Of a DNA stretch of 64,000 nt, positions 15,836-63,985 are shown one piece after another. The stretch spans positions 10,535-74,534 of the forward strand of contig JAJZVO010000014.1 in the NCBI GenBank assembly GCA_021845665.1, given 5' to 3'. The position numbers and the translations under genes are program-made. The first letter of the stretch is position 1. Every line of letters starts with the position of its first letter. The stretch is from Bacteroidota bacterium (GTDB lineage: Bacteria > Bacteroidota > Ignavibacteria > Kryptoniales > JAKASW01). The notes under the pieces are model-generated. The model worked only from the letters and a program-made list of their open reading frames with translations, had not been told where the DNA came from and did not search any database.

Positions 15836-16204
15836 TTAAGTCGTTTTCAAAATTTGGTCGATTTTTTCTTTCAGCACCTGGGGAGTAAACGGTTTCACGA
15901 CATAGTTGTTTACTCTGGCCTGCAGGGCTTCCATAACGTCTTCTTTCATCCCCCTTGTGGTAACCATAAGGATCGGCAGGTTGAGGAACTGGTCGTCCGC
16001 GCGTACCGCTTTCGTGAATTCCAACCCGCTCATGTTCGGCATGTTCCAGTCGGTGATCACAAAATCTATCTTTTCCACATAGAGCTTCGTTAGCGCATCC
16101 TTGCCATCTTCAGCTTCGACTATGTCGTCATAGCCAATCCCCTTGAGGGCATTGTTGACGATTCGACGCATGGTCTGTGAATCGTCAACTACAAGGAATT
16201 TCAT
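15836..16204 (-). CDS. cheY: Chemotaxis response regulator CheY
   Basis: Single REC domain with CheY hallmarks (FLVVDDSQTMRR, ITDWNMPNMSG, VVKPFT). Confidence 0.9.
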   Translation of the reverse strand: MKFLVVDDSQTMRRIVNNALKGIGYDDIVEAEDGKDALTKLYVEKIDFVITDWNMPNMSGLEFTKAVRADDQFLNLPILMVTTRGMKEDVMEALQARVNNYVVKPFTPQVLKEKIDQILKTT

Positions 16205-16215
16205 GGGCGTTCTCC

Positions 16216-16581
16216 TTAGTTAATGTATTTTGCAACTTCGTATTGAATTCTTTTTTGATCGAATGGTTTTACAAGGTAAGAGTTCGCTCCCAGTTGCATG
16301 CCGGTTTCGATATCGTTCTCGTTGCTTAGCGAAGACAAGATGATGACGGGGACGTCGGAATACTCGCTGTCCTCCCGTAAGGCTTTCAGAAATTCGAACC
16401 CATCCATATTGGGCATATTGAGGTCGGTGATGACCAGGTCCACTTTGTTCTGCGACAGTTTCTCGAGCGCATCCATGCCGTCTCTTGCTGCCACAACGAG
16501 GAGGCCGAGAGACCGGAGCGCAAAGACCAGGAATTTCCTGACTGATTCGGAATCATCGACTACCATTACAGCTTTCATCAA
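16216..16581 (-). CDS. Second single-domain CheY-like response regulator
   Basis: REC domain (VMVVDDSESVRK, ITDLNMPNMDG, LVKPF). Adjacent paralogue of cheY. Confidence 0.85.
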   Translation of the reverse strand: MMKAVMVVDDSESVRKFLVFALRSLGLLVVAARDGMDALEKLSQNKVDLVITDLNMPNMDGFEFLKALREDSEYSDVPVIILSSLSNENDIETGMQLGANSYLVKPFDQKRIQYEVAKYIN

Positions 16582-17469: not shown

Positions 17470-18840
17470 CTAATTCCGTCGGTTCGATGTCGATTGGGTC
17501 ACCAAAATTATGGCAGTCGATCTTATTTCTACGTCGTCGTCGCTGGTGAGCGTATCGAGCTCCTTCTCAAAAAGACGCGGTCCGAGTTTCGCAGCCAGAT
17601 CGAGCGCGAGTATCTTGACGGCGGTCTCGGGGTCGTTGAGACTTGCCCTGACAAGCTGCTGCGCCCAGACGTTTCCAAGCGAGATGCACTTGCTGAGGGC
17701 TATGATTCTTGTTTCGACGTCCAGGCTGCTGAGGTGCTTACCTATGAATTCGGCCATCGCCCTGGTCTCTTCACCCTCGGAAAACCTGAAGCTCGTATCG
17801 CTCAAGTTTTGAATCAGCAGCACGATCATCTTTATTGTCGATACGGGATTGTCAATTGCCTGTGCGCGCGCCAGTGCGATGGGGATGGATTTCTTAGCCT
17901 GCCCGGTAAGAACCGCTAATATCGCCGCGTCTATGGAGTCCGCTTTCCCGATGTGGTTAATTAGGGAGTGAAGGACTTCATCGTCCACAAGATGAGCGAG
18001 GCCGCGGACGGCTGTCCTAACGTAAGTTGGATCGGGATCATCCAGCATTTCGAGCAGATCCGGCTTCAGCGCTTCAGGCATCGCTTCTTTTCTATCCGCC
18101 GATTCCAACAGGACAACGAGCGAATGAAGGATCACGGGTTTTGCAAGGCCCGACACCTGGTTCAGTTTTTCCAGAAGGATGTCCATTGTCTCGCGGTCCT
18201 TCCGTGTTGACAAAGCATCGGCGGCCGCGAGCTGGACGATCGGGTCCTGGTCGGACAGCGCCTTGACGAAAAACTGAAGGTCGGCGTTACCCTGGATCTT
18301 TGCTGCAGCGTTCACGACGTTAGGTCTTGCGTACCCCGCTTCATCATACAATTCGAGCAGTTCTCCCACATGCTGGTTGGCATGGAGGGCGCCGAGTGCG
18401 TCGACGGAAGCGCAAACCACATTTTGGTCGGTGTCTCGCAGGTGGGTTGCAATCTTCTCCACGCTTTCCGTCGTAGCGGGAAGTTGAGCGAGGATGTCGA
18501 TTGCAAATTTTCTCACGTCTTTATCGGGAGATTCCACGTAGGGAAGGAGCGCGTTGACCGCCACGCTCTGCATTCTGACGAGGGCGTCCCCGGCAAGGTT
18601 CCTCACTGCTATATTCATGCTCTGTATGTGAGTAGCGGTCAGCGAGGCCGCCTTCTCATTCAGACAAAGCACGAGGACATGCGAGGCCGCTTCCCTGACT
18701 CCCCGGTCCGGGTCAGTTAGAAGATATGCGGCCGCTTCAATCACGCGATCGTCCTCCGAGTAGTCGTACAATGCTTCCAACGCGTTCCTTTTGCCCGAAG
18801 GATCCTGCGTGTGTAGCTGTTCGATCAGTTCGTCAATCAT
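17470..18840 (-). CDS. HEAT-repeat (PBS-lyase-type) protein
   Basis: At least 7 repeats of the D-x-D/E-x-x-V-R-x-x-A-x-x-x-L type (DPDRGVREAASHVL, SPDKDVRKFAIDIL, DTDQNVVCASVDAL, DQDPIVQLAAADAL, DPDPTYVRTAVRGL, DPETAVKILALDL, DDDVEIRSTAIIL). Confidence 0.75.
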   Translation of the reverse strand: MIDELIEQLHTQDPSGKRNALEALYDYSEDDRVIEAAAYLLTDPDRGVREAASHVLVLCLNEKAASLTATHIQSMNIAVRNLAGDALVRMQSVAVNALLPYVESPDKDVRKFAIDILAQLPATTESVEKIATHLRDTDQNVVCASVDALGALHANQHVGELLELYDEAGYARPNVVNAAAKIQGNADLQFFVKALSDQDPIVQLAAADALSTRKDRETMDILLEKLNQVSGLAKPVILHSLVVLLESADRKEAMPEALKPDLLEMLDDPDPTYVRTAVRGLAHLVDDEVLHSLINHIGKADSIDAAILAVLTGQAKKSIPIALARAQAIDNPVSTIKMIVLLIQNLSDTSFRFSEGEETRAMAEFIGKHLSSLDVETRIIALSKCISLGNVWAQQLVRASLNDPETAVKILALDLAAKLGPRLFEKELDTLTSDDDVEIRSTAIILVTQSTSNRRN

Positions 18841-18846
18841 AATCGC

Positions 18847-20232
18847 TCACAAGTTCTTAGTTCGAATGATTTCGTTTCTCAACTCTTCGAAAGTAGTGTT
18901 GCTGTAGCTCCGTTTGAGAGGAACCCTGACGCCATTTATTTCGGCGACTACACTTTGATGGATGGTCCCAAGCACGGTAAGTTTCGGACATTTCTTGCGG
19001 CTCATTTCCAGCACTTTATCCTGCTTCTTTACGGAAAGCTCCTTCACAAGATCGTTTTGACGGCGGAGTTTGTCCTGGAGAAGCTTGAGCTGCTCGGCCT
19101 TCTCGCCGGTGAAATTGTTGCTGTCGATTCGCTCCCTGACCAATAGATAGATGTCGTTCTTGAGCTGTTCGATCGTTTTGGCTTGCAGCTGAATCTCTCG
19201 ATCTATAGCAATCGCGTTTTCCCTCAGGAGCTCGGCCATGCCGACTTTTACCCTCGTGGTAGAATAAAGCTCCCCGCCGATCGTACGAGCTTCGATTGCT
19301 TCTCCCGCAGCTATTATACCCCCCATGATCGTGGCGTTCGTCCCAATTACCTTTTCCGAGGCGATCAGGTGAGCATTTACACATTCCCTCCCGATTTTTA
19401 TGGAACCTTCTGCCTCTATCAACTGGTTCAAGACAACGTTGACGTCAACATTCCCGCCGGCCCTGATCAACCCGTCACCTCGACCGACAAAGCTCTTTTC
19501 CACAACAACATTCCCGCCGACGATTATCTTGGCGTCCTCTACCGATCCTTCGACGCGAAGGTCATGCCGGATCTTGAGGCTTCCGCTCCCTTTGATGTCA
19601 CCGGTGACCAACAGTGACCCGGCGAACTCCAACTCACCTGCCGAATAGTCGACGTCATCGTGGATCGTATGCTGCGGGACGATCTCTACACTGGCCGCCC
19701 CAACATGGAGGTACCCGTCTGCGGCAGCTTCAAGGATAATCTTATCTTCCATGTCGGTCCGTTTGATCTCGGGACCTGTGAAAACGTTAAGGGGTTTACC
19801 TTCCTTCGGCTGCACTTTTCTGCCGAATATGTCTATGCCGACACTTCCTGCAGTGGGCTTATAGATCTCACCTATCACATCTTCAGCGAATACGTTGGTG
19901 ATGTTGAATTTCTTTTCGCCATCGGACCGCGGACGGGATTCCACCCGTTTGAAAAAACCCTCCCCACCGTCGGAATGTCTCGAGCCGCGTGCAACCAATG
20001 TTCGTACTCCGGGGTCTTTGATGGCCGCGCGTGCCGCATTCAAGTCGACACCATACACGATTCCGTCAGCCTCAAGTATAGCCCGAATGTCGGACAGTTC
20101 CAGACCTTCCTTTTCCACGATTGCGTATGCTTCGTAGCCGTCGCTCGAAATATCGAGCTGGACTTGTCTGTTCGCGACCTCCACTTTTATTCGATCTCCA
20201 CGTTCGCTTTCTGACTGACTCATGTTTGTCAT
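18847..20232 (-). CDS. FapA/DUF342-family protein (flagellar-assembly protein A-like)
   Basis: N-terminal domain ([12 protein letters not shown]...[15 protein letters not shown]), a central beta-helix-like repeat region ([11 protein letters not shown]..., GNVVVEKSF..., GNVDVNV...), then [17 protein letters not shown] and a C-terminal coiled coil. This is the typical DUF342 layout. Confidence 0.7.
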
Positions 20233-25830: not shown

Positions 25831-25846
25831 ACAATCGGCGTGCCAC
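25831..25846 (-). promoter_or_regulatory. Candidate sigma-54 (-24/-12) promoter for the chemotaxis operon
   Basis: The minus strand reads GTGGCACGCCGATTGT, i.e. TGGCACG-N4-TTGT against the consensus TGGCACG-N4-TTGCW. It lies ~370 nt upstream of the first che-operon start codon (25460). Confidence 0.5.
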
Positions 25847-26141: not shown

Positions 26142-26156
26142 TGGCACAGACGTTGA
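26142..26156 (+). promoter_or_regulatory. Candidate sigma-54 (-24/-12) promoter for the flagellar super-operon
   Basis: TGGCACAGACGTTGA, i.e. TGGCAC-N5-TTGA against the consensus TGGCAC-N5-TTGC. The predicted TSS (~26167) lies just upstream of AGGAG (26175-26179) and the ATG at 26187. Confidence 0.55.
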
Positions 26157-27212: not shown

Positions 27213-27482
27213 ATGAAGGTTGGTTCAATTTCAAGTATGGGTTATTCGCCGGTATCACAGAAAGAGCCTGCAAGGAGTCCCAAGCTGGCGGCTCCGGAAC
27301 AGAAATCTCAGGCAACAGCAGGAACATCTGTCAATCATGGCGGCCTCACTAACGCCGAGCGTGCCTTCTTTGCGAAGCTCTTTCCTGAATCGTCTTCGCA
27401 GATACATGCTCATTCAACTTATTCACCCAGCGGCATTCATGCTTCCGTGGAGCCGGGACAAATTATAAATAGGAAGGTTTAA
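27213..27482 (+). CDS. Hypothetical 89-aa protein inserted between flgC and fliE
   Basis: GAGGAG SD lies 4-5 nt before the ATG. The stop is 1 nt before the fliE ATG and its 3' end carries the fliE SD (AGGAAGG). The protein is S/P/A-rich with no recognised family. Confidence 0.55.
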   Translation: MKVGSISSMGYSPVSQKEPARSPKLAAPEQKSQATAGTSVNHGGLTNAERAFFAKLFPESSSQIHAHSTYSPSGIHASVEPGQIINRKV

Positions 27483-27483
27483 G

Positions 27484-27783
27484 ATGCAGGTAAGTGAACT
27501 ACAGGCAGCGATAGGGAGGTTGGCGCCGGACATTTCTGCCAACAAAAGCGCTGAAGATGTCACGTCGAATTTCGCCGACATGCTCGACGGATTTGTCAAT
27601 CATGTCAACGAGCTGCAGACAAAGGCAAACACTGCCATAGATGATATGGCCTCGGGTCAGCCGGCGAATGTCAATGAGGTCATGGTCGCAATGGAAAAAG
27701 CCAAGATCAGCTTCGATATGCTTCTGCAGATCAGGAACAAGATGCTGGATGCATATAAGCAAATAATGCAGATGCAGATGTGA
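27484..27783 (+). CDS. fliE: Flagellar hook-basal body complex protein FliE
   Basis: FADMLDGFVNHVNELQ..., MVAMEKAKISFDMLLQIRNKMLDAYKQIMQMQM is the typical FliE C-terminus. Confidence 0.9.
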   Translation: MQVSELQAAIGRLAPDISANKSAEDVTSNFADMLDGFVNHVNELQTKANTAIDDMASGQPANVNEVMVAMEKAKISFDMLLQIRNKMLDAYKQIMQMQM

Positions 27784-39039: not shown

Positions 39040-39054
39040 TGGTACCGGCATAGC
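39040..39054 (+). promoter_or_regulatory. Weak candidate sigma-54-type promoter upstream of fliL
   Basis: TGGTACCGGCATAGC keeps the exact GG-N10-GC spacing (TGGtAC-N5-TaGC against TGGCAC-N5-TTGC). It is 57 nt upstream of the fliL ATG. Confidence 0.3.
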
Positions 39055-44240: not shown

Positions 44241-46322
44241 ATGGCAGCGACAGTAGAGAGAATATCGACCAGCAAAGCATACAGATTATTCGGGAAGAAT
44301 ACTGACCTGCTTCTCGCGGGGGTGGTACTCCTGATTCTCTCCCTGATGATCGTACCGCTTCCGCCGTTCATGCTCGATATTCTGATTTCGGCAAACATCA
44401 CGTTCTCGATCGTTCTCCTGATGGTCGCTATGTACATCACGAGCCCGCTCGAGCTCTCCGCATTTCCCGGCTTGCTTTTGATACTCACACTCTTCCGTCT
44501 CTCTTTGAACGTCGCCTCTTCAAGGTTGATCCTTAGTAAGGGATATGCCGGTGAAGTCATTCACGCGTTCGGCTCGTTCGTTGTTCAAGGCAACTATGTC
44601 GTCGGCGTAATCATATTCATAATCCTGGCGACCATCCAGTTCGTCGTGATTATCAAAGGCTCCGGAAGAATCGCGGAAGTTACGGCCAGGTTCACCCTGG
44701 ATGCGATGCCCGGGAAACAGATGAGCATCGATGCCGATATGAACTCCGGTTTGATCACGGAAGAGCAGGCAAGGCAGCGGCGCAGCAACCTGCAGAGGGA
44801 GGCGGACTTCTTCGGCGCGATGGACGGCGCAAGCAAGTTTGTCAAAGGTGACGCGATCGCCGGCGTCATCATAATCGTCGTCAATATTGTCGGCGGCTTC
44901 ATAATCGGCATGGCGCAGCTCGGGATGAGTTTTACCGGGTCCCTATCACATTACACGCTCCTGACGATTGGCGACGGTCTGGTCACGCAAATACCTGCCC
45001 TCGTCATTTCTACCGCGGCCGGTATGATAGTAACCAGGAGCGCGTCCGGCGGTCAGCTCGACCAGGAATTGAAGAAGCAGCTCCTGTCGAGGCCGAAAGC
45101 GCTTTATATAGCCGGCGGAACACTCGGTTTCTTTGCGATCATACCCGGTCTTCCTACCGTGCCTTTCCTCGCCCTCGCCTCCATCGTGGCAGGTTTCGGG
45201 TACATCAGGTCGAAGACTATGTCAAACCAGCCCGCAGGGGAGCAGGCGAAGGCGGCAACCGAAGATGAGAAGAAGGATGAGAAGATCGAATCCTACTTGC
45301 AGGTCGATCCGATCGAACTTGAGATCGGCTACGGACTGATTTCGATGGTAGACGAAGCCGCGGGCGGCGATCTTTTCCAGCGCATCACGAACCTCAGGAA
45401 GCAAATCGCTCTCGAGTTTGGGATGATCGTTCCTCCGATCAGAGTTCGCGACAACCTTCAACTTCCACCAAGCCGGTACGTGATCAAGATAAGAGGTGTT
45501 CAGGTTGCCCTCGGTGAGCTCTACATGGATCGTTACCTTGCGATGAGTCCATCTATGAAGGAAGGCGATATCCCGGGTATTTATGTCACCGATCCGACAT
45601 TCGGTTTGCCGGCAGTCTGGGTGGAGCGAACGCAGCGCGACAATGCCGAGGTTCTCGGCTTCACTGTCGTCGAGGCGCCCGCCGTCCTTTCGACGCATCT
45701 CGGCGAGACGTTGAAAAGGAATGCGGATAAGATTCTCAGCAGGCAGGAAGTGAAGATGCTCATAGACAACCTGAAGAAGGATTATGGTGCATTAGTCGAC
45801 GAGATCAACCCTGATCTTCTTCCGCTGGGGACGCTTCAGAAAGTTCTGCAGAATCTGCTTAAGGAAAGGATTCCTATACGGGACCTCGTAACTATCATCG
45901 AGTCACTCCTTGATTATTCCAAGGTCACGAAGAATACGGAAGTATTGACCGAGTACGTCAGACACGCACTCTCTGAGACGATCGCGGCGCTTTATGCGGA
46001 TCCGTCCGGCGTAATACACGCTATCACGCTCGATCCGTCGGTGGAGCAGATCCTGTCGAATTCTCTGCAATCCCAGAAAGAGATCACGAACACGCTCGGC
46101 CTTTCCCCGGAGGTAACCAGGAAAATAAACGACAGCGTCTCAAAAAATGTCGAGCATACCCAGTCGTTCGGTTACGATCCAGTCGTTATATGTTCGGCAA
46201 CGGTCAGGCTCTATTTCTACAGGCTTATACATACGAACTTCCAGCAGGTGGCCGTCACTTCATACACAGAGCTGCCGGCGCGCACCGAGATTGACATCAT
46301 CGGAAGGATAGTAGCAGGATGA
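44241..46322 (+). CDS. flhA: Flagellar export gate protein FlhA
   Basis: FHIPEP motifs (RFTLDAMPGKQMSIDADLN..., FVKGDAIAG) and a large cytoplasmic C-terminal domain. Confidence 0.96.
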   Translation: MAATVERISTSKAYRLFGKNTDLLLAGVVLLILSLMIVPLPPFMLDILISANITFSIVLLMVAMYITSPLELSAFPGLLLILTLFRLSLNVASSRLILSKGYAGEVIHAFGSFVVQGNYVVGVIIFIILATIQFVVIIKGSGRIAEVTARFTLDAMPGKQMSIDADMNSGLITEEQARQRRSNLQREADFFGAMDGASKFVKGDAIAGVIIIVVNIVGGFIIGMAQLGMSFTGSLSHYTLLTIGDGLVTQIPALVISTAAGMIVTRSASGGQLDQELKKQLLSRPKALYIAGGTLGFFAIIPGLPTVPFLALASIVAGFGYIRSKTMSNQPAGEQAKAATEDEKKDEKIESYLQVDPIELEIGYGLISMVDEAAGGDLFQRITNLRKQIALEFGMIVPPIRVRDNLQLPPSRYVIKIRGVQVALGELYMDRYLAMSPSMKEGDIPGIYVTDPTFGLPAVWVERTQRDNAEVLGFTVVEAPAVLSTHLGETLKRNADKILSRQEVKMLIDNLKKDYGALVDEINPDLLPLGTLQKVLQNLLKERIPIRDLVTIIESLLDYSKVTKNTEVLTEYVRHALSETIAALYADPSGVIHAITLDPSVEQILSNSLQSQKEITNTLGLSPEVTRKINDSVSKNVEHTQSFGYDPVVICSATVRLYFYRLIHTNFQQVAVTSYTELPARTEIDIIGRIVAG

Positions 46323-47575
46323 GAATTAAGAAATTCACCGGAGCGACGGCAAAGGAAGCCGTCGAAAAAATGCGTCAGGAATTCGGCGAGGAAGCCGTTG
46401 TTCTGAACACACGACGCGTTTCGAAAGGCGGGATTCTCGGAATAGGAAACGAGGAGTATGTCGAAGTGACGGCCGCCTACGACGAATCGCCAATGAGAGT
46501 TCAGCCTCGCATCCAACAGCCGCGCCCCCAGCAGTCACCGGCCTCCGGCGAAGATGTCCTCGGCAACCTAAGGCAGCTCGCTTCCAAATTTGAAGAGAAG
46601 CGGAAAGCGGATGCGTCGGCGAAGCGGCCTCCGGCAACGTTCTCGCAGGCTGCGTCAAGTGTCGAGAGCGATGCGCTCAAACAGGAACTCTCTGAGGTCA
46701 AGAACGCCCTTGGCGAAATAGCCCAGCATATCAAGCACTCCAAGATGCCTGTACTCTCAGAAGCATTGAAGAATGTGTATACGACGCTGGTCGACAACGA
46801 GGTCGAGGAGGATATCGCGCTCGAAATCGTTCAGACATGCAACAGTAAGCTGGGCGGAAGCGCGAGCCAAAACCAGTTTGCTGTAGACAATATCATATAT
46901 CGCTCGATTGCCAGGCGCTTCACGGAATCTCCTGTCAGGCGGCTCGGAAGGAAAGGCTACGTCGTAGCGCTTGTCGGACCGACCGGTGTCGGCAAAACCA
47001 CTACGGTGGCAAAGCTGGCTTCAATAAGTAAACTTGTCAAAGGGGAGAACGTTGCGCTCATCACTGCCGACACGTACAGGATCGGCGCCATCGATCAGCT
47101 CAAGGCTTTCGCGGATATAGCTTCCATACCGTTGTCTGTCGTCTACACCCCGGACGAGATGATCGCTGCAATCAGAAAATATTCAAACTGCGACACGATT
47201 TACATAGATACTGTAGGCAGAAGTCAGCGGAAGCCCGACAAAATAATTGAGCTCGGCAGGTTTATCGACGCTGCGGATCCGAACGAAGTTCATCTGGTGT
47301 TGAGCGCAAACTTCTCGGTAAGCACCGTGCTGGATGTCTACGGGAAATTCAGAGGTCTGAAGCCGAACAGGCTCTTGATAACGAAAACCGATGAGGCCGT
47401 CTCTCTCGGCATGCTTCTTAGTCTCGCCCGGGACTCGAGCATACCATTCTCGTTTATCACGAACGGCCAGAGTGTTCCCGACGACATAGAGCCGGCATCG
47501 GGAGAAATCTTTTCGAAAATGATTTATCCGGTCGGTTCATCTCGTGACATAGTTGGAGTCGAAGCCAATGCTTGA
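46319..47575 (+). CDS. flhF: Flagellar SRP-type GTPase FlhF
   Basis: G1 LVGPTGVGKTTT, G3 DTVGRS, and TKTDE in the NG domain. Follows flhA. Confidence 0.92.
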   Translation: MRIKKFTGATAKEAVEKMRQEFGEEAVVLNTRRVSKGGILGIGNEEYVEVTAAYDESPMRVQPRIQQPRPQQSPASGEDVLGNLRQLASKFEEKRKADASAKRPPATFSQAASSVESDALKQELSEVKNALGEIAQHIKHSKMPVLSEALKNVYTTLVDNEVEEDIALEIVQTCNSKLGGSASQNQFAVDNIIYRSIARRFTESPVRRLGRKGYVVALVGPTGVGKTTTVAKLASISKLVKGENVALITADTYRIGAIDQLKAFADIASIPLSVVYTPDEMIAAIRKYSNCDTIYIDTVGRSQRKPDKIIELGRFIDAADPNEVHLVLSANFSVSTVLDVYGKFRGLKPNRLLITKTDEAVSLGMLLSLARDSSIPFSFITNGQSVPDDIEPASGEIFSKMIYPVGSSRDIVGVEANA

Positions 47576-48392
47576 TCAGGCAGTAAGATTGAGAGAAGTG
47601 GTGAACGCCCAGACAGCTGTGACACAAATCGGAAATCAGCCTCACAAGATCAGCGTGGTAAGCGGAAAAGGAGGAGTCGGGAAAAGCAATATAGCTCTCA
47701 ATCTCGGGATAGCTTTGGCCCGGCACGGCGCGCGCGTTCTGCTGGTCGACGGCAACGTCAACCTTTCGAATCTCGATATCCTGTCAGGTGTCTCTCCGAA
47801 TTTCAGACTCTTCGATGTGATTGAAGGGAAGGTCGGGCTCCGGGAGGCGGTTGCGGAAATTTCTCCGAACGTGTTCCTTTTGGCAGGCATGTCCGACGGG
47901 ACGCTTAAGAAGCTCGGTTCCGGAGATGCGGCGGCTTTCTTCAGGGAAGTGAAGCTCGCTGAGCCGGCATTTCATTACGCAGTAATCGACACTGCCGGCG
48001 GCATAGTGCAGGAGTCCATATCCCTCGCCCTTCTCTCAGACGAAGTCCTTGTGGTCTCTACACCTGAACCTACGGCGGTCATGGATGCTTATGTGCTGGT
48101 CAAGGCGATCAAGAGGATCAATTCGAGTGCCGACCTCAGGCTCCTGATAAACAGGGCGAAGAGCGCAGAAGAGGCGGACGAAGTGAGATCGAAATTCGAC
48201 ATGGTCAGCGAGCATTTTCTCAATCTCAAGATCGATTACGCCGGTTTCATACCTTCTGATGAATCGGTCGAGAAAGCGGTAAGCTTCCAGGTTCCGTTCT
48301 TGAAAGAATTTCCCGATTCGGCGTCATCAAAGGCGCTCGGCTCGATCGCGGAACGCATCCTGGCAAAAGGGTCATTCAGGAAAAAGCCGTGA
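47553..48392 (+). CDS. flhG: MinD/ParA-type ATPase FlhG (FleN/YlxH)
   Basis: Deviant Walker A (VVSGKGGVGKSNIALNLG) and Walker B (AVIDTAGG). Follows flhF. An alternative ATG start lies at 47568. Confidence 0.88.
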   Translation: MESKPMLDQAVRLREVVNAQTAVTQIGNQPHKISVVSGKGGVGKSNIALNLGIALARHGARVLLVDGNVNLSNLDILSGVSPNFRLFDVIEGKVGLREAVAEISPNVFLLAGMSDGTLKKLGSGDAAAFFREVKLAEPAFHYAVIDTAGGIVQESISLALLSDEVLVVSTPEPTAVMDAYVLVKAIKRINSSADLRLLINRAKSAEEADEVRSKFDMVSEHFLNLKIDYAGFIPSDESVEKAVSFQVPFLKEFPDSASSKALGSIAERILAKGSFRKKP

Positions 48393-48661
48393 TGGACAAG
48401 CTTGGAACAAAAATACCGACGCTTGTTTTCTTCCTTGGGGTGGTCTATTTCGCCTCGGACGGGTACGGCGTGGTCGATGCGATAGTAAGGGCTTTCATGG
48501 TTGCGTTCGGTGTCGCCCTGATTATCCTGTTATTCACAATGCTACTGATGTTCTTCCTGACTCTTCAGAAGAACAGATCGGAAACCGTGAAAATACCTGC
48601 GGCAGATCAGCACGTCCAAACTGCACAGCTGCAGAGCAAGAAAGTTGAGATGCAATCATGA
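48389..48661 (+). CDS. Hypothetical 90-aa two-TM membrane protein between flhG and fliA
   Basis: ATGA/ATGA overlaps with both neighbours. Two hydrophobic helices (IPTLVFFLGVVYF; FMVAFGVALIILLFTMLLMFFL) and a polar tail. Confidence 0.55.
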   Translation: MMDKLGTKIPTLVFFLGVVYFASDGYGVVDAIVRAFMVAFGVALIILLFTMLLMFFLTLQKNRSETVKIPAADQHVQTAQLQSKKVEMQS

Positions 48662-49386
48662 CAACTCAAGAACTCTGGGAAAAGTACTCCAGGCGCAAGA
48701 CGGCGGCAGTGAAGAAAGACCTCGTGCTTTCTTACATGAATCTCGTCAAATATGCAGCCCGTGCAATCAACCTTCCGTCGAAGTGTGTGTTCGATACTGA
48801 TGACCTGATGAGCATAGGTATAATCGGGCTCGTCGAGGCGATAGAGAGGTTCGATCCGAAGCGTGGAGTCAAGTTCGAAACGTTTGCGTCCCAGAGAATT
48901 CGGGGTGTCATGCTGGACGAGATCAGGAAAGTTGACTGGCTTCCGAGGTCCGTCCGCGACAAATACAAGAAAGCATTCAAATCGCTTAGCGAGCTCGATA
49001 TGGACAGCGTCAACGGCGAGAAATACGCCCGGGCGATAAACATGAGCATTAGCGAATTTGAGCAGATCAAGGGCTACCTGGCCAATGCAGAAGCGGTTTC
49101 ACTTACCAGGGTGATCGGCGAAGACATGACGCTGGAAGACGTGATAGGAAGCGACAGCGAGGTCATCGAGCAGTTCGAAGATGAGGAATTGAAGGAACAT
49201 CTGGTGAAAAGTCTGAAACAGCTGGCCGATAGGGAACGCATGGTGGTTACTCTTTACTATTACGAGGAACTCACTTTCAAAGAAATCGGAAAAGTCCTTG
49301 GGATCAGCGAATCGCGCGTGTCCCAAATACACTCGGAAGTGATATCGAAATTGAAAGAGCAGTTTAGAAAGGTTGTTGAACTATGA
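48658..49386 (+). CDS. fliA: Flagellar sigma factor FliA (sigma-28)
   Basis: Region 2 (LMSIGIIGLVEAIERFDP..GVKFETFASQRIRGVMLDEIRK), region 3, and region 4.2 (RERMVVTLYYYEELTFKEIGKVLGISESRVSQIHSEVISKLK). Confidence 0.92.
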   Translation: MTTQELWEKYSRRKTAAVKKDLVLSYMNLVKYAARAINLPSKCVFDTDDLMSIGIIGLVEAIERFDPKRGVKFETFASQRIRGVMLDEIRKVDWLPRSVRDKYKKAFKSLSELDMDSVNGEKYARAINMSISEFEQIKGYLANAEAVSLTRVIGEDMTLEDVIGSDSEVIEQFEDEELKEHLVKSLKQLADRERMVVTLYYYEELTFKEIGKVLGISESRVSQIHSEVISKLKEQFRKVVEL

Positions 49387-50549
49387 TAGGGGTTGGACAA
49401 TTGACTGACAAGTTATCGACGATAAAAGATTTGCCGACATTTCCGACGACCGCGTTGGAAGTCATGCGGCTTGCCAGTGACTCCGACAGCAGTGCCGCCG
49501 AGCTGGCGAGGATAATATCGAGAGACCCTTCGCTCGCGACCAAGATACTCCGGGTCGCCAATTCACCCTATTACGGCTTCGTCAGAAAGATTTCGACGAT
49601 CGAATGGGCAATCGTGGCGCTCGGGTTCGAGACTCTCAGGGAGACCATCCTTTCTCTCACGGTCATCGACTTGTTTAAGGGCGGTCCGACGAAGGATTTT
49701 GACCCGCGTAAATTCTGGAAGCATGCTGTCGATACCGCCTCTGCCGCGAGGACTCTCGCACGTGAGGCGAAATACAGGATCCCGGGCGAAGCGTACGCAT
49801 CGGGTTTGCTCCACGACGTAGGAACGCTCGTGCTTTACAGATATTTCCAGGAAGATTTCGCTGAAATCTTAAAACTTGTGAATGAAGAAAGCGTGCAACT
49901 TTCCCAGGCAGAAGTCGTGGTCACGGGGACGACGCACGGTGAAATCGGCGCGTGGCTCGCCGCCAAATGGGGTTTTCCACCCTACCTGGTCGAGGCAATC
50001 AAATTCCATCACTCACCTGCGTTTTCGGAAGTGAATCCTGAGCTGACTTCGATCGTCCACGCAGCAAGTCTCATAGCCTCTTCGGTGGGTTACTCCTGCG
50101 CGGATCAACCGGTGAGGTTCGATACCATGGCGATAAAGTATCTGGGGATAGAACGACTTGCCCCTCCGATGAGAGTTCTCGCCTCAAAATATATCAATGA
50201 CGATAACACGAGTCTCATAAAGATCCGCGTTCCGGTGACGGATTACGCTCCGGGAAACGAACCCGATATTCCCACGGCTGAGCCGGATGATGAACCTGGA
50301 GACGAAGTGGATGATGGCACTCTGAAGAGATTCTTCAAAGATGCAATAAAGCTGCTTCCCTCCACTGAAAGACTCGTTTTGACTCTCAAGCTATACGAGG
50401 GGCTTGAACTAAGGCAGGTAGCGACCGTGCTCGGCTACGAGGAAGCAAAGGTCGCGGAGTATTACAAAAACGCAATATCCGCACTCCAGCAGATGGCTGA
50501 GCGCGCGATACTAACGAATAGGTTGAACCAATGGAAAATGAGATTCTAA
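49383..50549 (+). CDS. HDOD-domain protein fused to a C-terminal sigma-70 region-4-like HTH domain
   Basis: HDOD covers aa ~15-235 (LPTFPTTALEVMRLASD..., ILRVANSPYYGF, GLLHDVGTLVL, THGEIGAWLAAKWGFP, AIKFHH). An acidic linker follows (PDIPTAEPDDEPGDEVDD). Then LPSTERLVLTLKLYEGLELRQVATVLGYEEAKVAEYYKNAISALQQ, which parallels FliA region 4.2 in the preceding gene. Confidence 0.8.
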   Translation: MIGVGQLTDKLSTIKDLPTFPTTALEVMRLASDSDSSAAELARIISRDPSLATKILRVANSPYYGFVRKISTIEWAIVALGFETLRETILSLTVIDLFKGGPTKDFDPRKFWKHAVDTASAARTLAREAKYRIPGEAYASGLLHDVGTLVLYRYFQEDFAEILKLVNEESVQLSQAEVVVTGTTHGEIGAWLAAKWGFPPYLVEAIKFHHSPAFSEVNPELTSIVHAASLIASSVGYSCADQPVRFDTMAIKYLGIERLAPPMRVLASKYINDDNTSLIKIRVPVTDYAPGNEPDIPTAEPDDEPGDEVDDGTLKRFFKDAIKLLPSTERLVLTLKLYEGLELRQVATVLGYEEAKVAEYYKNAISALQQMAERAILTNRLNQWKMRF

Positions 50550-51391
50550 AGGAAAAAGTACAAAACATTATTCAGCTTCCCGCACTTCCCACAATTGCGG
50601 TAGAGGTTGCTTCTCTCATTGACAATCCGAACACGAGTGTCTCCAAGCTCACAAGTGTCATTTCTGCCGACCAGGTTCTGACTGCCAAGGTCCTTAAGAT
50701 AGCAAACTCGCCGTTTTACGGATTTCAAAGGAAAATATCGACGCTCGATTTCGCTATCATGGTTCTCGGCTTCGATTCACTGAAGGAAATCCTCATCAGC
50801 ATTTCGCTGATAAGCGCCTTCAAGAAGAAGCAGGATAAGTATTTTAATTCGAAAGAATTCTGGGAGCATTCGCTGGCAACAGGCATTGCCGCTCGTACTC
50901 TTGCCAGGCAACTCGGCTACCGGATAAGCGGTGAGTCGTTCGTGGCAGGGCTTATCCACGACATCGGTATCCTGGTGACACATCAGTATTTCCACGAGGA
51001 TTATAAACATATCGTGGATGCAGTCACCGGCGGGAGGGCTTCCTTCCAGGATATGGAAGAGACGGTACTATTTGCCACACATGGTGACATCGGGGCGTGG
51101 CTCGCCGAACGATGGAACCTGCCCGAGCAACTGATCGAAGCCATCAAATACCATCACAAGCCGGGACTTGCCGAAAGGAATCCTCAGCTGACCGCATTGA
51201 TTCATTTTGTCGATTATCTCTGCCATAAACTCGGCATTGGAGCGCTCTCGTACGAGAAGGTCCAGGCATACGATCCCGAATCGTTGAGGATTCTCAATAT
51301 TTCCGAAGCCGAAATAACCGAGGCGTTTTACGAGTCCTTCGGTTCGAAACTTCGCGAAGATCTTGAGCGGACTTTCGTGAATATCATCTGA
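50531..51391 (+). CDS. HDOD-domain protein (stand-alone paralogue)
   Basis: LPALPTIAVEVASLIDN..., VLKIANSPFYGF, GLIHDIGILVT, THGDIGAWLAERWNLP, AIKYHH. Confidence 0.85.
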   Translation: MENEILKEKVQNIIQLPALPTIAVEVASLIDNPNTSVSKLTSVISADQVLTAKVLKIANSPFYGFQRKISTLDFAIMVLGFDSLKEILISISLISAFKKKQDKYFNSKEFWEHSLATGIAARTLARQLGYRISGESFVAGLIHDIGILVTHQYFHEDYKHIVDAVTGGRASFQDMEETVLFATHGDIGAWLAERWNLPEQLIEAIKYHHKPGLAERNPQLTALIHFVDYLCHKLGIGALSYEKVQAYDPESLRILNISEAEITEAFYESFGSKLREDLERTFVNII

Positions 51392-51412
51392 TCTGTTTAC
51401 CCGGAGATAAAA

Positions 51413-52822
51413 ATGAAAAATGAAGAGATAGAAGAGAACAATATTAAGATGGGGAGCACAAAACCGCAGTCCCATGCCGTGGCTGAAAGTATTGAACGAT
51501 TCATGGAGACCCGCGAATCGTACATACATGCGCTCGAAAGCACCGTCCAATTGTTCAAGATGAAACTGGAGTTCCATGAGAAAACCGAAACAGACATCAA
51601 GCAATCGCTGGACGAGGTGTTTGCGATGCAAAGACTTGCAAACACAATAAGTACTGCCACCGATCCGGTCTCCGTCTTAGATTCTCTCCTTGAACTTACA
51701 CGGCAAGTGGTCCCGGTTGAAGAGAGCATGATATTCGAAATGGGAGCCTCAAGGTCCCAGACTAAACCTTTTCTTTCCACATGCTCGGACTATATGCTCA
51801 AAGCTTCACAGCACCTCCTTGAAGAAGGCATTCTCGATTGGGTCATAGAGCAGAAGAAGACAACGGTGGTCCCGGATCTGAATGCCTCGATGGCGGAGGC
51901 CGGGCAGAGAAACTTCGTGGTCGTTCCTCTCACGCTCCGCAACGAAGCCATCGGAGTATATATCATACGCACCGGCAGCGTTCGGAAGGCTTTCACCGAC
52001 CACGAGCTGATGTTGCTTGGAATTCTCTCGAACCAGGCGGCCGTCGCAATCGAGAATCTTCACAACATAAGGAAACTTCTGGACGCGACCGAGGAGCTGA
52101 AAAAATCGCAGTCCCAGATGCTTCAGGCCGCTAAACTTGCATCACTCGGAGAACTGGCAGGTGGCATCGCTCACGAAATCAACAACCCTCTGCAAATACT
52201 CCTCGGCCATATCGCTCTCCTTCAGCAGGGAAAAGATGTCGAACACAGGATCGAGATAATCAGGAACCAGGTGCAGAGAATCTCCCAGATTACCCGCCAG
52301 CTTGTCTCATTCTCCAGAAGCGTGCCCGACGAACTGAATCACGAATTGGTAAACATCAATTGGGCCTTAAATGAAATCATCGCTCTCGTGGACTACCAGT
52401 TCAAGAACCGCGGCATCGAGTTCGATCTGCGTCTTTCGGAAGGAATTCCTCCTCTCGACTCGAATAAGAACTACATGCAGCAGGCTTTCCTAAATCTTCT
52501 GATAAATGCGAAAGACGCGATGCCTAACGGAGGAAAGTTGATCATTTCGACGGAGTTTGTAAATGGTAAGCTAAACATACGCTTCACCGATTCAGGATCC
52601 GGCATAAAAAAAGAAAATCTCGTCAAGATATTCGAACCGTTCTTCACCACGAAGGAACCTGGAAAAGGCACGGGGCTCGGCCTTCCCATCACTAGAGGGA
52701 TCGTAAGGAAATTCGGCGGCGACATCAAAGTTGACAGCACCGAAGGCCAGGGCACCACTCTTTCAATCATAATCCCGGTCAACAGAACCGGCGGCCCGAT
52801 CAGCGGAGGTAATATTCAATGA
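51413..52822 (+). CDS. Cytoplasmic GAF-domain sensor histidine kinase (orphan)
   Basis: GAF-like region (VLDSLLELTRQVVPVEESMIFEM..., NFVVVPLTLRNEAIGVYII), H-box (GIAHEINNPLQ), N box (LLINAKDAM), G boxes (DSGSGI; [10 protein letters not shown]). No TM helix. Confidence 0.85.
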   Translation: MKNEEIEENNIKMGSTKPQSHAVAESIERFMETRESYIHALESTVQLFKMKLEFHEKTETDIKQSLDEVFAMQRLANTISTATDPVSVLDSLLELTRQVVPVEESMIFEMGASRSQTKPFLSTCSDYMLKASQHLLEEGILDWVIEQKKTTVVPDLNASMAEAGQRNFVVVPLTLRNEAIGVYIIRTGSVRKAFTDHELMLLGILSNQAAVAIENLHNIRKLLDATEELKKSQSQMLQAAKLASLGELAGGIAHEINNPLQILLGHIALLQQGKDVEHRIEIIRNQVQRISQITRQLVSFSRSVPDELNHELVNINWALNEIIALVDYQFKNRGIEFDLRLSEGIPPLDSNKNYMQQAFLNLLINAKDAMPNGGKLIISTEFVNGKLNIRFTDSGSGIKKENLVKIFEPFFTTKEPGKGTGLGLPITRGIVRKFGGDIKVDSTEGQGTTLSIIIPVNRTGGPISGGNIQ

Positions 52823-53493
52823 CAGAAATCTTATTGATGCTTCTAACGCCCGACACTGCAGCGGTAAATATCAGTGCCCTTGTCACGCGGGATATGGACC
52901 GGGCGGCAATCAAAGCGGCGGAGGCCGCTTATAGAAGGCCCCCCCAGGGATTTTTCGGGATATCCGATTTCGTGCTTCTTCTCGAGCTCGCAATGATTCT
53001 CGCCATGGCCGCTCTTCTGGTAGCTCTGGTTGTACGCTCCAGGCGAATCGCGCGTGAACAGAGCGAGAGGGCGATCCGTGCGCAGCGGATGGGCGTCAAA
53101 CGTCCGCCGGCCATCACTAAAGCGGAAATCGAGAGGATACTTGAGCAGATTGCCGTCGATAAGGCGAAGAACGTCGACTCGTTGGTCGGCGGCTACTACA
53201 TCGATAACAACGGCCGGCTCGATTCCAGGGCTGCCGTCCACGAAATGGCAAGGGAGCATGGAATGGAATCGGAACGGCTGAACTTCGCCATCTCCTATGC
53301 TTCTCAATCAGCAAGGCAGACAGGCGCCAAGTTCAAAGAAGCATTTTCGCTCGTCAGCGAAGAATCAGACCTGAATGTCTTGGCGCGCCAACTCAACATG
53401 GGAAAGGGAGAACTCGAACTTATCCTCGCGCTGAAGAGGAGTAAGATTGCCAATTCAAGAAATGTTGCGGATAAAGGCAAAGGGAGAAAATAA
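52819..53493 (+). CDS. Hypothetical single-pass membrane protein
   Basis: One TM helix (FVLLLELAMILAMAALLVALVV) followed by a basic/helical ~140-aa C-terminal part. Translationally coupled to the kinase gene (ATGA) and to flgF (TAATG). Confidence 0.5.
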   Translation: MTEILLMLLTPDTAAVNISALVTRDMDRAAIKAAEAAYRRPPQGFFGISDFVLLLELAMILAMAALLVALVVRSRRIAREQSERAIRAQRMGVKRPPAITKAEIERILEQIAVDKAKNVDSLVGGYYIDNNGRLDSRAAVHEMAREHGMESERLNFAISYASQSARQTGAKFKEAFSLVSEESDLNVLARQLNMGKGELELILALKRSKIANSRNVADKGKGRK

Positions 53494-54248
53494 TGATCAA
53501 AGGAATCTATACAAGCGCACTCGGTCTAATACCGCTGCAGAAGAAACTCGAGGTCATCGCAAACAATCTCGCCAATGTCGATACGACTGCATTCAAGCGG
53601 GACGACTCTTTTGCGAACGAACTGATATCAGCCAATACTCTTGTAAATAGCGGGAGCGTGGATCCGACTCAGAATGATGTGAGCGAACAGACGTTTACGG
53701 ATTTCTCGCAGGGTCCACTGCAGCAAACCAGTAATCCTCTCGACGTCGCCTTAGACGGAAAAGGTTTTTTTGTCGTTCAAAACAAGAACGGCAGCACCAA
53801 CCTCACTCGCGACGGATCGTTCACTCTTTCGAGCGACGGGACCCTGGTAACCCGTAGCGGTGCAGCCGTTCTGGGAGCAGATGGACCGATACGCGTAGGA
53901 GATATACAGCACATACAATCCAGCAACCTTGTGATCGACAGGTACGGCGTCGTAAAGGCTGGCAAAGAAATCTACGGTCAGTTGAGAGTGGTGATGCCAT
54001 CTTCTTATGACGAGATTGCGAAGGCGGGCGGGAATCTCTATTCGCTCAAACAGGGTGCCCAGCTCCAGGATGTCAATCCGTCCGCTGTGACGATCAGGCA
54101 GGGTTATCTTGAAGGCTCCAACGTCAATCCAATCGAGGAGATGGTGGCCATGATTCAGATCCAGCAGGATTTCGAAGCCGGCCAAAAAGCCATACAGAGC
54201 CAGAACAGCACACTCTCGGAAGCGAATCAGGTCGGACAGGTGGCTTGA
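53493..54248 (+). CDS. flgF: Flagellar proximal rod protein FlgF
   Basis: MIKGIYTSALGL...IANNLANVDTTAFKR N-terminus and a rod-protein C-terminus (GYLEGSNVNPIEEMVAMIQIQQDFEAGQKAI). Confidence 0.85.
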   Translation: MIKGIYTSALGLIPLQKKLEVIANNLANVDTTAFKRDDSFANELISANTLVNSGSVDPTQNDVSEQTFTDFSQGPLQQTSNPLDVALDGKGFFVVQNKNGSTNLTRDGSFTLSSDGTLVTRSGAAVLGADGPIRVGDIQHIQSSNLVIDRYGVVKAGKEIYGQLRVVMPSSYDEIAKAGGNLYSLKQGAQLQDVNPSAVTIRQGYLEGSNVNPIEEMVAMIQIQQDFEAGQKAIQSQNSTLSEANQVGQVA

Positions 54249-62994: not shown

Positions 62995-63276
62995 ATGCTA
63001 GTCTTGACAAGGAAGTTGGGCGAAGTAATAAAGATCGGCGACAAGGTTAAGGTCGTCGTAGTCGCGGTAGACGGTGGGAGCGTGAAGCTGGGTATCGAAG
63101 CTCCCGGTGAAATTCCAGTACACAGGGAAGAGGTTTACGTTAAGATAGCCACAGAAAACAAGGAAGCTTCGACGCAGCTCGACAAGGATAGCGCCAAAGC
63201 TCTGAGGGATATGCTTTCGAAAGGTTCTCGGAGATCCGGCAAGGACTCCGAACGCTCGGGTAAGAAAAATGCCTGA
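62995..63276 (+). CDS. csrA: Carbon storage regulator CsrA (FliW-partnered type) with ~40-aa charged C-terminal tail
   Basis: MLVLTRKLGEVIKIGDKVKVVVVAVDGGSVKLGIEAPGEIPVHREEVY is the canonical CsrA fold sequence. Follows fliW. Confidence 0.93.
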   Translation: MLVLTRKLGEVIKIGDKVKVVVVAVDGGSVKLGIEAPGEIPVHREEVYVKIATENKEASTQLDKDSAKALRDMLSKGSRRSGKDSERSGKKNA

Positions 63277-63985
63277 GACGACTCGGAAGAGCGTCCTGGT
63301 TATCGACGATACAAAAATCGTCCGGAGGTTCGCCGAAGATTTCTTTAAGAGGCTGAATATGTCAGTGACTCTGGCCTCCGACGGGTATGAAGGTGTGCAG
63401 ATTGCGCTTTCCTCCAGACCCGATGTGATCTTCCTCGACCTGATGATGCCGAGGCTCGATGGCTTCAAGACTCTCCAGATCATAAAGTCTAATAACCTTA
63501 CGAAGGATGTTCCTGTAATCGTCATGACGGGATATTCCGACAGGATAAACGTCATATCGGCGGGTAAGTTGGGCGCCACTTCCGTTATTACAAAACCCCT
63601 TTCCGAAGAGATCCTCCTGAAAAAATTGCAGCAGGTTTTCGGCAAGGATTTTGTCAGATCAATAATCCCTCGGGATCCCAAAGAGAAAGAAAACCCGTTC
63701 GGAGTAAAAGAGGAAGAATACAGCGACGTCGTGCGAAGCATGGTCGAGGAATTCGTCAAGTACTTTGGGGAGCAGGTCGACGAACTGGAGCAGGCTGTCC
63801 ATGAGAAGGATGTTGGTACAATCAGAAGGATTACCCACGACATCCGCGGGACCGGGGGATCGTTCGGTTATGACGAAGCGACTACGCTGGCGACCCGGCT
63901 GAACGAGTCTGTCCACCTCTCTCCTGTCAACTGGGAGGGTGTGGAGGAATTGCTTGTACAGTTGAAGAATAGGTTGAAGAAATGA
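63269..63985 (+). CDS. Response-regulator receiver fused to an Hpt phosphotransfer domain
   Basis: REC domain (VLVIDDTKIVRR, IFLDLMMPRLDG, ITKPL). C-terminal four-helix Hpt with ITHDIRGTGGSFG (His ~190). Confidence 0.8.
   Translation: MPETTRKSVLVIDDTKIVRRFAEDFFKRLNMSVTLASDGYEGVQIALSSRPDVIFLDLMMPRLDGFKTLQIIKSNNLTKDVPVIVMTGYSDRINVISAGKLGATSVITKPLSEEILLKKLQQVFGKDFVRSIIPRDPKEKENPFGVKEEEYSDVVRSMVEEFVKYFGEQVDELEQAVHEKDVGTIRRITHDIRGTGGSFGYDEATTLATRLNESVHLSPVNWEGVEELLVQLKNRLKK

Follow-up and report, generated by a model that had tools for sequence, protein, structure and literature searches.

Sigma mimicry is an established mode of regulation in the PhyR/NepR/EcfG system, and soluble kinases control rod and hook genes in the FlgS/FlgR and FlrB/FlrC systems. 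Here, we compare with these and other described systems a segment of four open reading frames (ORFs) between the flagellar genes fliA and flgF (49383-53493), which lies in a 64,000-nucleotide stretch from a Kryptoniota bacterium, recorded as Bacteroidota (assembly GCA_021845665.1, contig JAJZVO010000014.1, positions 10,535 to 74,534 of the forward strand). This whole stretch is called the window, and positions are given in it unless another locus is named. The four ORFs encode two HDOD proteins, a soluble histidine kinase with a GAF domain, and a single-pass membrane protein. Judged from gene order and sequence, the segment is a flagellar cassette of ancient origin, found at the fliA-flgF junction across the Fibrobacteres-Chlorobi-Bacteroidetes (FCB) group. 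Three genes make up its core: one for an HDOD protein with an intact di-metal site, one for the soluble GAF kinase, and one for a single-pass membrane protein that apparently belongs to the DUF6115/DUF2802 (FipA-like) group.

HDOD is widespread and has been called a domain of unknown function (PMC11004494). HDOD mutants recur in motility screens (GsmR, Cj0248, SadB, PSPTO_4229, and PFL_0554/5871), and the stand-alone HDOD protein PSPTO_4229 has a dosage-sensitive effect on swimming (PMC11813219). SadB binds the C-terminal domain of a transcription factor. The iron ligands of the HDOD structure 3HC1 are five histidines and one aspartate, and SadB is without three metal-binding histidines (PMC12075610). 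SadB from Pseudomonas fluorescens is reported to bind cyclic di-GMP (c-di-GMP) (PMC6543031), whereas SadB from Pseudomonas aeruginosa does not bind c-di-GMP and does not need the pocket (PMC12075610). DUF2802 corresponds to FipA. This transmembrane (TM) protein is a binding partner of FlhF, which it brings to the pole, and its gene neighbours the flhF-flhG-fliA operon in gammaproteobacteria; the motif for FlhF binding in VpFipA comprises G110, E126, and L129 (PMC11620751).

The cassette and its conservation

ORF1 (49383-50549, +, 388 amino acids [aa]) encodes an HDOD protein with a pseudo-sigma4 tail, ORF2 (50531-51391, +, 286 aa) a stand-alone HDOD protein, ORF3 (51413-52822, +, 469 aa) the soluble GAF histidine kinase, and ORF4 (52819-53493, +, 224 aa) the single-pass membrane protein. 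They are preceded by fliA, the gene for sigma-28 (48658-49386, +; TIGR02479 FliA_WhiG, 224 bits, above cutoff), and followed by the proximal rod gene flgF (53493-54248, +; TIGR02490, 189 bits, above cutoff). Read from the sequence, the fliA stop codon overlaps the ORF1 start codon in an ATGA at 49383, ORF1 and ORF2 overlap by 19 nucleotides (nt) at 50531, a gap of 21 nt separates ORF2 from ORF3, ORF3 and ORF4 meet in an ATGA at 52819, and the flgF start overlaps the ORF4 stop in a TAATG at 53493. The coordinates, domains, and junctions that an initial annotation had assigned to the four ORFs were all borne out, and so were flagellar genes on both sides, from flgB to flhG before the block and from flgF to csrA after it.

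The flagellar array covers ∼38 kb, entirely on the + strand (26324-63985), and nearly all of its intergenic distances are below 25 nt. The upstream order is flgB, flgC, ..., fliF to fliR, flhB, flhA, flhF, flhG, a gene for a 90-aa membrane protein, and fliA. Downstream of the block follow flgF, flgG, flgA, flgH, flgI, flgJ, flgN, flgK, flgL, motA, and motB, and the 3' end after motB consists of fliW, csrA, and a gene for a receiver-histidine phosphotransfer (REC-Hpt) protein. Within 46-56 kb, a terminator scan detected no terminator-like site on the + strand, and a promoter scan counted sigma-70 promoter-like sites at or below the chance level. The conserved gene overlaps together with the lack of a + strand terminator-like site fit co-transcription, and it can reasonably be inferred that the block shares a transcript with its flagellar neighbours. 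We considered a mobile insertion and rejected it: GC content is uniform across the window, and the position of the block is conserved across phyla.

Synteny at the fliA-flgF junction, on which the initial annotation had made its proposal depend, is present in FCB relatives and is neither missing nor scattered. The identical four-gene order occurs in five of five independent Kryptoniota genomes examined (loci L001, L003, L005, L008, and L009), with ORF1 identity down to 61%. The order there is flhG, small TM gene, fliA, HDOD-sigma4, HDOD, GAF kinase, ORF4, and flgF, and the 19-nt overlap is kept. This recurrence in independent genomes shows that the arrangement is real and not due to chance. 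Full-length homologues of ORF1 (61-93% identity) were found only in Kryptoniota-type genomes, and a more distant genome (L006) has fliA, one HDOD gene, the GAF kinase gene, a gene for a 175-aa membrane protein, and flgF. For a wider scan, we used an HDOD alignment with one genome per species and classified the 80 returned loci with queries derived from the window. The HDOD gene or genes directly follow fliA in 34 of these loci. A kinase gene comes directly after HDOD in 29 of the 34; of the five loci in which it does not, three break off at a contig end. The fliA-linked loci carry one HDOD copy (13 loci), two (20 loci), or three (1 locus). By their record labels, the lineages with the cassette include Kryptoniota, other Bacteroidota metagenome-assembled genomes (MAGs), Ignavibacteria/Melioribacteraceae, Latescibacterota, Fibrobacteria, and Calditrichia. 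The initial annotation underestimated both the age and the spread of the cassette, and the four-gene unit described there gives way to a three-gene core to which ORF1, a lineage-specific HDOD duplicate with a FliA-derived tail, has apparently been added.

Some loci contain further genes at this junction. A hydrophilic, low-complexity ORF of 93-111 aa lies between fliA and HDOD in Latescibacterota, Fibrobacter, Calditrichia, and one 'Cytophagia' MAG (L014 3577-3870, L015 7626-7937, L019 3819-4124, L033 1049-1384, L036 7614-7925, and L037 7675-7953). All its products end in '...(I/V)D(I/V/L)x(A/V/I)', the ORF is absent where fliA and HDOD overlap, and it could encode a FlgM-like or secreted regulator. 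Some Ignavibacteria loci have a ∼390-aa FliK-like protein between the ORF4-like gene and flgF (L017 11699-13160 and L027 11627-13038); the one in L017 has a weak Flg_hook match, and L017 also encodes at this place a 96-aa stand-alone FlhB C-terminal-domain protein (Bac_export_2, E 8e-26). Three loci with Ignavibacteria-type architecture and sequences (L022, L023, and L025) are recorded as Acidobacteriota, Chlorobiaceae, and Bacillota, and their taxonomic labels or binning are probably wrong. L004 and L005 share the same protein P0022; several flagellar genes of L004 are broken up or joined, among them ORF4, fused to flgF (481 aa), and flhF, in two pieces, L005 is intact, and the split and fused genes of L004 are most likely assembly frameshifts and not biology.

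Features of the encoded proteins

That the block holds two HDOD paralogues is well supported, since both domains score far above the Pfam gathering cutoff (PF08668, 22.9 bits). The ORF1 domain (aa 17-212; 49431-50018, +) reached 216.3 bits (E 3.7e-64) and the ORF2 domain 216.4 bits (E 3.5e-64), and the two are 44% identical. The closest PDB match of both is 3HC1, the Geobacter di-iron HDOD, and a fold search with the ORF1 domain returned 3HC1 first and SadB (9qzk) second. Residues H114, H144, D145, H185, H209, and H210 of ORF1 are identical to the aligned di-metal ligands of 3HC1 (five His, one Asp). The equivalent residues of ORF2 (H113, H143, D144, H184, H208, and H209) are invariant in the alignment, and the HD-type metal ligands are kept in both paralogues and in all HDODs of flagellar loci. 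By these ligand residues, both HDODs are assigned to the metal-binding subgroup. In a neighbour-joining tree, ORF2 clusters with the single-copy HDODs of other lineages, which suggests that this kinase-proximal gene is the ancestral one; branches are longer for the copies with a sigma4 tail. ORF1 appears to be a derived duplicate of the HDOD gene, specific to its lineage, with the tail taken from FliA. Public annotations of ORF1 include 'HDOD domain-containing protein', 'putative nucleotidyltransferase with HDIG domain', and 'sigma-70 family sigma factor'.

The HDOD domain of ORF1 is connected by an acidic, variable linker that is predicted to be disordered (aa 285-312; 50235-50318, +; net charge -11) to the 76-aa pseudo-sigma4 tail (aa 313-388; 50319-50546, +). 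In an AlphaFold2 model of ORF1 (39 orthologues), the predicted local distance difference test score (pLDDT) was ∼90 for HDOD, below 50 for the linker, and moderate for the tail, with a predicted template modelling score (pTM) of 0.64. No other region of ORF1 is as conserved among the 39 orthologues as the tail (mean pairwise identity 81%, compared with 75% for HDOD and 22% for the linker), which argues for purifying selection and against a relic. It is 30% identical to aa 165-240 of the organism's own FliA (BLASTP, E 2e-10). Its top NCBIfam model is FliA_WhiG, at positions 151-222 (E 2.8e-8), and its sequence matches in the PDB include region 4 of FliA, WhiG, and sigma-28 structures (E 6e-7 to 4e-3). 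Scores on the Pfam models PF04545 and PF08281 were below gathering (17.9 and 19.6 bits versus cutoffs of 24.1 and 25.7; E 7e-4 and 2e-3). Sigma70_r2 had no match in ORF1, of which only aa 300-376 align to sigma factors. On these matches, we take the tail to derive from region 4 of FliA. It keeps the 4.1 helix 'ERxxxxLxxxEGL' and the helix-turn-helix (HTH) scaffold. The recognition-helix motif '(S/T)xSR(V/I)SQ' is kept in 37 of 37 distinct FCB FliA proteins compared; the tail has AKVAE in place of SRVSQ.

HDOD-sigma4 fusions occur in a second lineage (Bacteroidetes bacterium SJ300, JADLEA010000201.1; locus L011), where fliA is followed by two consecutive HDOD-sigma4 proteins, a plain HDOD protein, and the kinase. 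The first two members of this HDOD trio (4432-7589 in that locus) are sigma4-tailed and very divergent, and the third is of the conserved kinase-proximal type. The first tail scored 26.8 bits, above Pfam Sigma70_r4 gathering, and the other had an E value of ∼5e-5; at the recognition positions, these two tails have EHVVI and EDVQH. The order fliA / HDOD-sigma4 / (HDOD-sigma4) / HDOD fits repeated tandem duplication of a unit made of the 3' end of fliA plus HDOD, an origin drawn from gene order; at the DNA level, the copies are too diverged for a direct test. A search for homologues of the tail alone returned five candidates, all fragments of the same family, and is uninformative on the spread of the fusions.

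In ORF3, the GAF (aa 84-215; 51662-52057, +), HisKA (aa 245-302, +; codon of H254 at 52172-52174), and HATPase_c (aa 354-457; 52472-52783, +) domains are all above Pfam gathering. The H, N, G1, F, and G2 boxes are intact ('AHEINNPL' with H254, 'NLLINAKDA', 'DSGSGI', 'FEPFFTTK', and 'GTGLGL'), no TM or hydrophobic segment was found in the protein, and its catalytic core is closest to AtoS/ZraS-type kinases (NCBIfam). The kinase had been described as lacking an adjacent response regulator; indeed, there is no gene with a REC domain in the block or beside the kinase, and the same holds for every flagellar locus examined. Outside flagellar loci, in other phyla, a kinase gene lies directly downstream of HDOD in 11 of 46 loci, and natural fusions exist in the form of HDOD-HisKA (L085) and HDOD-GAF-GGDEF (L051). 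This adjacency and these fusions make HDOD look like an input or partner module of kinases, and they support such a role for it with GAF-linked signalling enzymes more generally. The ORF2-ORF3 pair would be the split version of an HDOD-signalling-enzyme fusion. At the very end of the array, after fliW-csrA and overlapping csrA by 8 nt, a gene encodes a REC-Hpt fusion protein of unusual architecture (63269-63985, +), which is a candidate phosphorelay partner of the orphan kinase ORF3.

The initial annotation was right to call ORF4 a single-pass membrane protein, but the 'unknown family' given there no longer applies, since matches at the level of the family point to a divergent member of DUF6115/DUF2802. 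The protein has a strong hydrophobic TM segment (∼aa 50-78; 52966-53052, +) followed by a basic stretch, and the C-terminal motif 'LARQLNMGKGELELILALK' (aa 164-207; 53308-53439, +) is the site of the DUF2802/DUF6115 matches. ORF4 alone had no Pfam or NCBIfam match at E ≤ 0.01; it scored 16.1 bits on DUF2802 (PF10975; E 0.013; gathering 33.5) and 13.9 bits on DUF6115 (PF19610; gathering 27). Within its family, sub-threshold matches to DUF2802 were found in 16 of 16 members (best E 1.2e-4) and to DUF6115 in 15 of 16, always at 'LARQLNMGKGELELILALK'. An exhaustive profile search with the cytoplasmic part retrieved only 10 proteins among 1.84 billion representatives. Two distant members of this set, P0184 and P0185 (library-wide E ∼4e-4), exceed the DUF6115 gathering score, with 34.5 and 41.4 bits, and have the motif IAKQLxMGxGEVELIL in common. 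E198 and L201 of ORF4 are invariant and have the E-x-x-L spacing; the residue 16 positions upstream is a glycine in some members only. In an AlphaFold2 model, ORF4 is extended and helical (pTM 0.26), with a confident TM helix and a cytoplasmic C-terminal part. An NCBIfam scan of ORF4 and the DUF6115 proteins returned no named family such as SwrB or FipA. The Ignavibacteria equivalents (∼200 aa) have the N-terminal motif of ORF4, a TM segment, and a terminal 'KGExxLA' motif, and positional equivalents with the same N- and C-terminal motifs occur in other lineages as well.

The candidate partners of ORF4 are encoded by flhF (46319-47575, +; SRP54-type match in Pfam/NCBIfam) and flhG (47553-48392, +; MinD/ParA-type match). 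In the window and in every relative whose contig reaches far enough, flhF, flhG, and fliA lie upstream in the same array. ORF4 is probably a divergent DUF6115/DUF2802-group protein that works like FipA, and on this assignment a part in placing or assembling the flagellum is likelier for it than one in signalling. FlhF partners of the FipA type may have a wider range than the gammaproteobacteria from which they are known.

Several other genes of the window were noted in passing. The 90-aa membrane protein between flhG and fliA (48389-48661, +) has a strong hydrophobic segment and no family match in Pfam and NCBIfam scans; its gene has ATGA-type overlaps with both neighbours, that is, it is translationally coupled to them, and most FCB flagellar loci have a small homologous ORF at this place. 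An 89-aa hydrophilic ORF (27213-27482, +; '...GLTNAERAFFAKLFPESS...') is wedged between flgC and fliE (27484-27783). It had no Pfam or NCBIfam match and could be an uncharacterised flagellar component or export substrate. In the chemotaxis cluster, a CheZ-like gene (14993-15823, -; Pfam E 2e-8) and genes for a 456-aa HEAT-repeat protein (17470-18840, -) and a FapA-family protein (18847-20232, -) lie between the gene for a methyl-accepting chemotaxis protein and cheR. Some ∼16-25 kb upstream of flgB (26324) are genes for a REC-less sigma-54 activator with AAA+ and Fis-type HTH domains (1411-2574, +) and for a PAS histidine kinase (6423-8438, +) that adjoins an NtrC-type response regulator (8502-9866, +). 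It is possible that these three products are the flagellar master regulators.

A possible role in sigma-28 control

Three independent genomic clues concern the HDOD proteins: their invariant position after the gene for sigma-28, their repeated fusion to a degenerate region 4, and their repeated pairing or fusion with GAF-linked kinases. Together, these clues turn the 'function unknown' of HDOD into specific, testable binding hypotheses. The role at the sigma-28 checkpoint that the initial annotation had ascribed to the block seems plausible from its position and the sigma4-derived tail. We propose, tentatively and at somewhat less than an even chance, that the HDODs bind region 4 of sigma-28, that the pseudo-sigma4 tail is a built-in competitor, that the metal site and the kinase provide input, and that ORF4 acts on FlhF. 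The HDODs encoded after fliA would be protein-binding regulators that contact region 4 as an anti-sigma factor or adaptor. By mimicking region 4, the ORF1 tail would compete with FliA for the sigma4-binding surface, for example that of its own HDOD or of ORF2, and this competition would subject free sigma-28 to a threshold or a switch. The GAF kinase and the di-metal site, the latter through its state (metal, redox, or small ligand), would be coupled as a sensor pair, with the kinase signalling to an unlinked response regulator, for which the window offers as candidates the REC-Hpt protein (63269-63985), the NtrC-type regulator (8502-9866), and CheY-like proteins (15836-16581). Anchored in the membrane, ORF4 would, like FipA, most likely act on FlhF, encoded ∼5 kb upstream.

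We infer the contact between HDOD and region 4 from the adjacency of fliA and HDOD in 34 loci, which resembles that of sigma and anti-sigma genes, from Rosetta-stone logic applied to the two fusion lineages, and from the precedents of SadB and the dosage-sensitive PSPTO_4229. Searches for FlgM gave no candidate: PF04316 had no Pfam match in any window ORF scanned, and phmmer with FlgM seeds, a weak test, found nothing below E=2.6 in all reading frames of the window. In the window and the relatives examined, flgJ abuts flgN without flgM between them. The sigma-28 promoter pattern TAAA-N14-16-CCGATA had no match in the window.

Several points weigh against this proposal. The search for FlgM covered the 64-kb window and ∼20-kb flanks in relatives, and a FlgM encoded elsewhere in the genome is possible. 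The ORF1 model speaks neither for nor against docking of the tail on HDOD, and a fusion by tandem duplication is in itself no proof that the domains interact. With its HTH scaffold kept and a net charge of +5, the tail might bind DNA with a new specificity. The core function does not depend on the tail, since the two HDODs of Ignavibacteria have no sigma4 extension. As for ORF4, its link to FipA consists of sub-threshold matches to a short motif, a Foldseek search of its model against the PDB gave no match at E <1, and its Ignavibacteria equivalents have no DUF2802/DUF6115 match in Pfam, their homology being one of position and shared motifs.

A bolder version, which we regard as unlikely, generalizes the proposal: HDOD would be a sigma-factor-binding domain, and in flagellated FCB bacteria a di-iron-sensor HDOD would replace or supplement FlgM on sigma-28, with a GAF kinase as partner and, in Kryptoniota and one sister lineage, a fused pseudo-sigma4 competitor. 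If true, it would add a class of anti-sigma or partner-switch system that has so far gone unnoticed, and it would offer a first mechanistic approach to the motility effects of HDOD proteins in many phyla.

Alternatively, ORF1 could be a PhyR-like anti-anti-sigma factor, its tail a decoy that would release FliA by titrating a FlgM-type factor from another part of the genome, with HDOD gating exposure of the decoy through its metal or ligand state or through kinase input. The origin of the tail in region 4 of FliA, a surface bound by FlgM in the solved sigma-28/FlgM complex (1rp3 is among the PDB matches), agrees with this, as does the loss of DNA-recognition residues from a scaffold that is otherwise kept. 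The second L011 tail also has a weak match to the Pfam model of the PhyR sigma-like domain, ORF1 has one to the NCBIfam PhyR model, and sigma mimicry is itself an established mechanism. However, no FlgM was detected in the window or in syntenic loci, and the search of the window gave no NepR homologue. Without a receiver domain (no Response_reg match), ORF1 offers the kinase no obvious switch, and PhyR mimics sigma2 plus sigma4, whereas only sigma4 is present here. We consider the decoy doubtful.

An equally doubtful possibility is that ORF3 is a checkpoint kinase like FlgS or FlrB, which phosphorylates an NtrC-type regulator for sigma-54-dependent flagellar transcription, with the HDODs as accessories and a tail of secondary importance that may tether ORF1 to RNA polymerase. 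Its AtoS/ZraS-like (NtrB-like) core suits such a role, the known soluble kinases for rod and hook genes provide the model, and both an NtrC-type regulator (8502-9866) and a sigma-54 activator that lacks REC (1411-2574) are encoded in the window. The sigma-54 pattern TGGCAC-N5-TTGC has only three one-mismatch matches in the window (25831-25845, -; 26142-26156, +; 39040-39054, +). Two of these three lie upstream of flgB, in the intergenic region from which the che cluster and flgB diverge, and suggest a sigma-54-dependent start of the flagellar super-operon; the total number of matches in the window is nevertheless not above chance. Moreover, the NtrC-type regulator is already served by a PAS kinase of its own, encoded next to it (6423-8438), and the strong selection on the tail and the constant position after fliA would be left unexplained.

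It is distinctly improbable that the HDODs are active di-metal phosphohydrolases that degrade a second messenger of motility, with a DNA-binding HTH tail that makes ORF1 a ligand-responsive transcription factor. The conservation of all HD-type metal ligands, the HTH scaffold and net positive charge of the tail, and the c-di-GMP binding described for P. fluorescens SadB would fit an enzyme. On the other hand, the literature we found reports no catalytic activity for HDOD, the P. aeruginosa protein neither binds c-di-GMP nor needs the pocket, and a DNA target common to the three tail types is made less likely by their different recognition-helix residues. We give almost no credence to a neutral hitch-hiker, in which the tail is a non-functional duplication remnant and the block an unrelated signalling operon: simple tandem duplication would suffice to explain the fusion, but the tail is the most conserved region in 39 ORF1 orthologues, the cassette occupies the same junction in several phylum-level lineages, and the translational-coupling overlaps are conserved.

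Comparison with described systems

In the literature searched, we came upon no description of the cassette or of HDOD-sigma4 fusions under HDOD with FliA, flagella, anti-sigma factors, or histidine kinases, and no paper on flagellar regulation in these FCB lineages (Kryptonia, Ignavibacteria); this agrees with the earlier description of the block as uncharacterised. Among its closest analogues is the PhyR/NepR/sigma-EcfG system. As in PhyR, a degenerate sigma domain is joined in ORF1 to a signalling domain, the promoter-recognition residues are lost, and competition for a sigma-binding partner is presumed. In contrast, the signalling domain of PhyR is a receiver, and its mimicry covers both sigma2 and sigma4 of an extracytoplasmic function (ECF) sigma factor, whereas ORF1 has HDOD and region 4 only, and the source is sigma-28 (FliA). 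PhyR also has NepR as its partner; window searches identified neither a NepR-like nor a FlgM-like partner for ORF1.

The FlgM/sigma-28 and RsiG/WhiG pairs resemble the cassette insofar as its position after sigma-28 and its region-4 tail suggest post-translational control of a FliA/WhiG-family sigma factor. The HDODs have no sequence similarity to these regulators: HDOD is globular and metal-binding, FlgM is disordered and secreted, and RsiG is a coiled coil that binds c-di-GMP. SadB has the HDOD fold and works by binding the C-terminal domain of a transcription factor, but it has a YbaK-like N-domain and has lost three metal histidines, whereas the cassette HDODs keep all ligands. GsmR differs in having a receiver domain; the cassette HDODs are stand-alone or sigma4-fused and are encoded in the flagellar operon beside fliA and the kinase.

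Like the kinases of FlgS/FlgR and FlrB/FlrC, ORF3 is a soluble, cytoplasmic kinase of the NtrB-like type that is tied to flagellar genes. Unlike FlgS and FlrB, it has no adjacent NtrC-type regulator, its sensor is a GAF domain instead of a PAS domain or coiled coil, and it is always paired with HDOD; its link to sigma-54 is only hinted at. FipA and ORF4 are both small single-pass membrane proteins with a cytoplasmic coiled region and a C-terminal motif (ORF4 matches DUF2802 positions 25-68), encoded in a flagellar cluster near flhF, flhG, and fliA in genomes with FlhF and FlhG. They differ in the segment before the TM helix, which has 50-100 aa and is probably periplasmic in the ORF4 proteins and has ∼5 residues in FipA, and ORF4 is closer to DUF6115 than to DUF2802, on which its 16 bits compare with a gathering cutoff of 33.5. 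Overall, FCB flagellar regulation may own a conserved checkpoint module that is distinct from the proteobacterial and firmicute paradigms. Each of its parts comes from a domain family already described, and PhyR provides the precedent for sigma mimicry.

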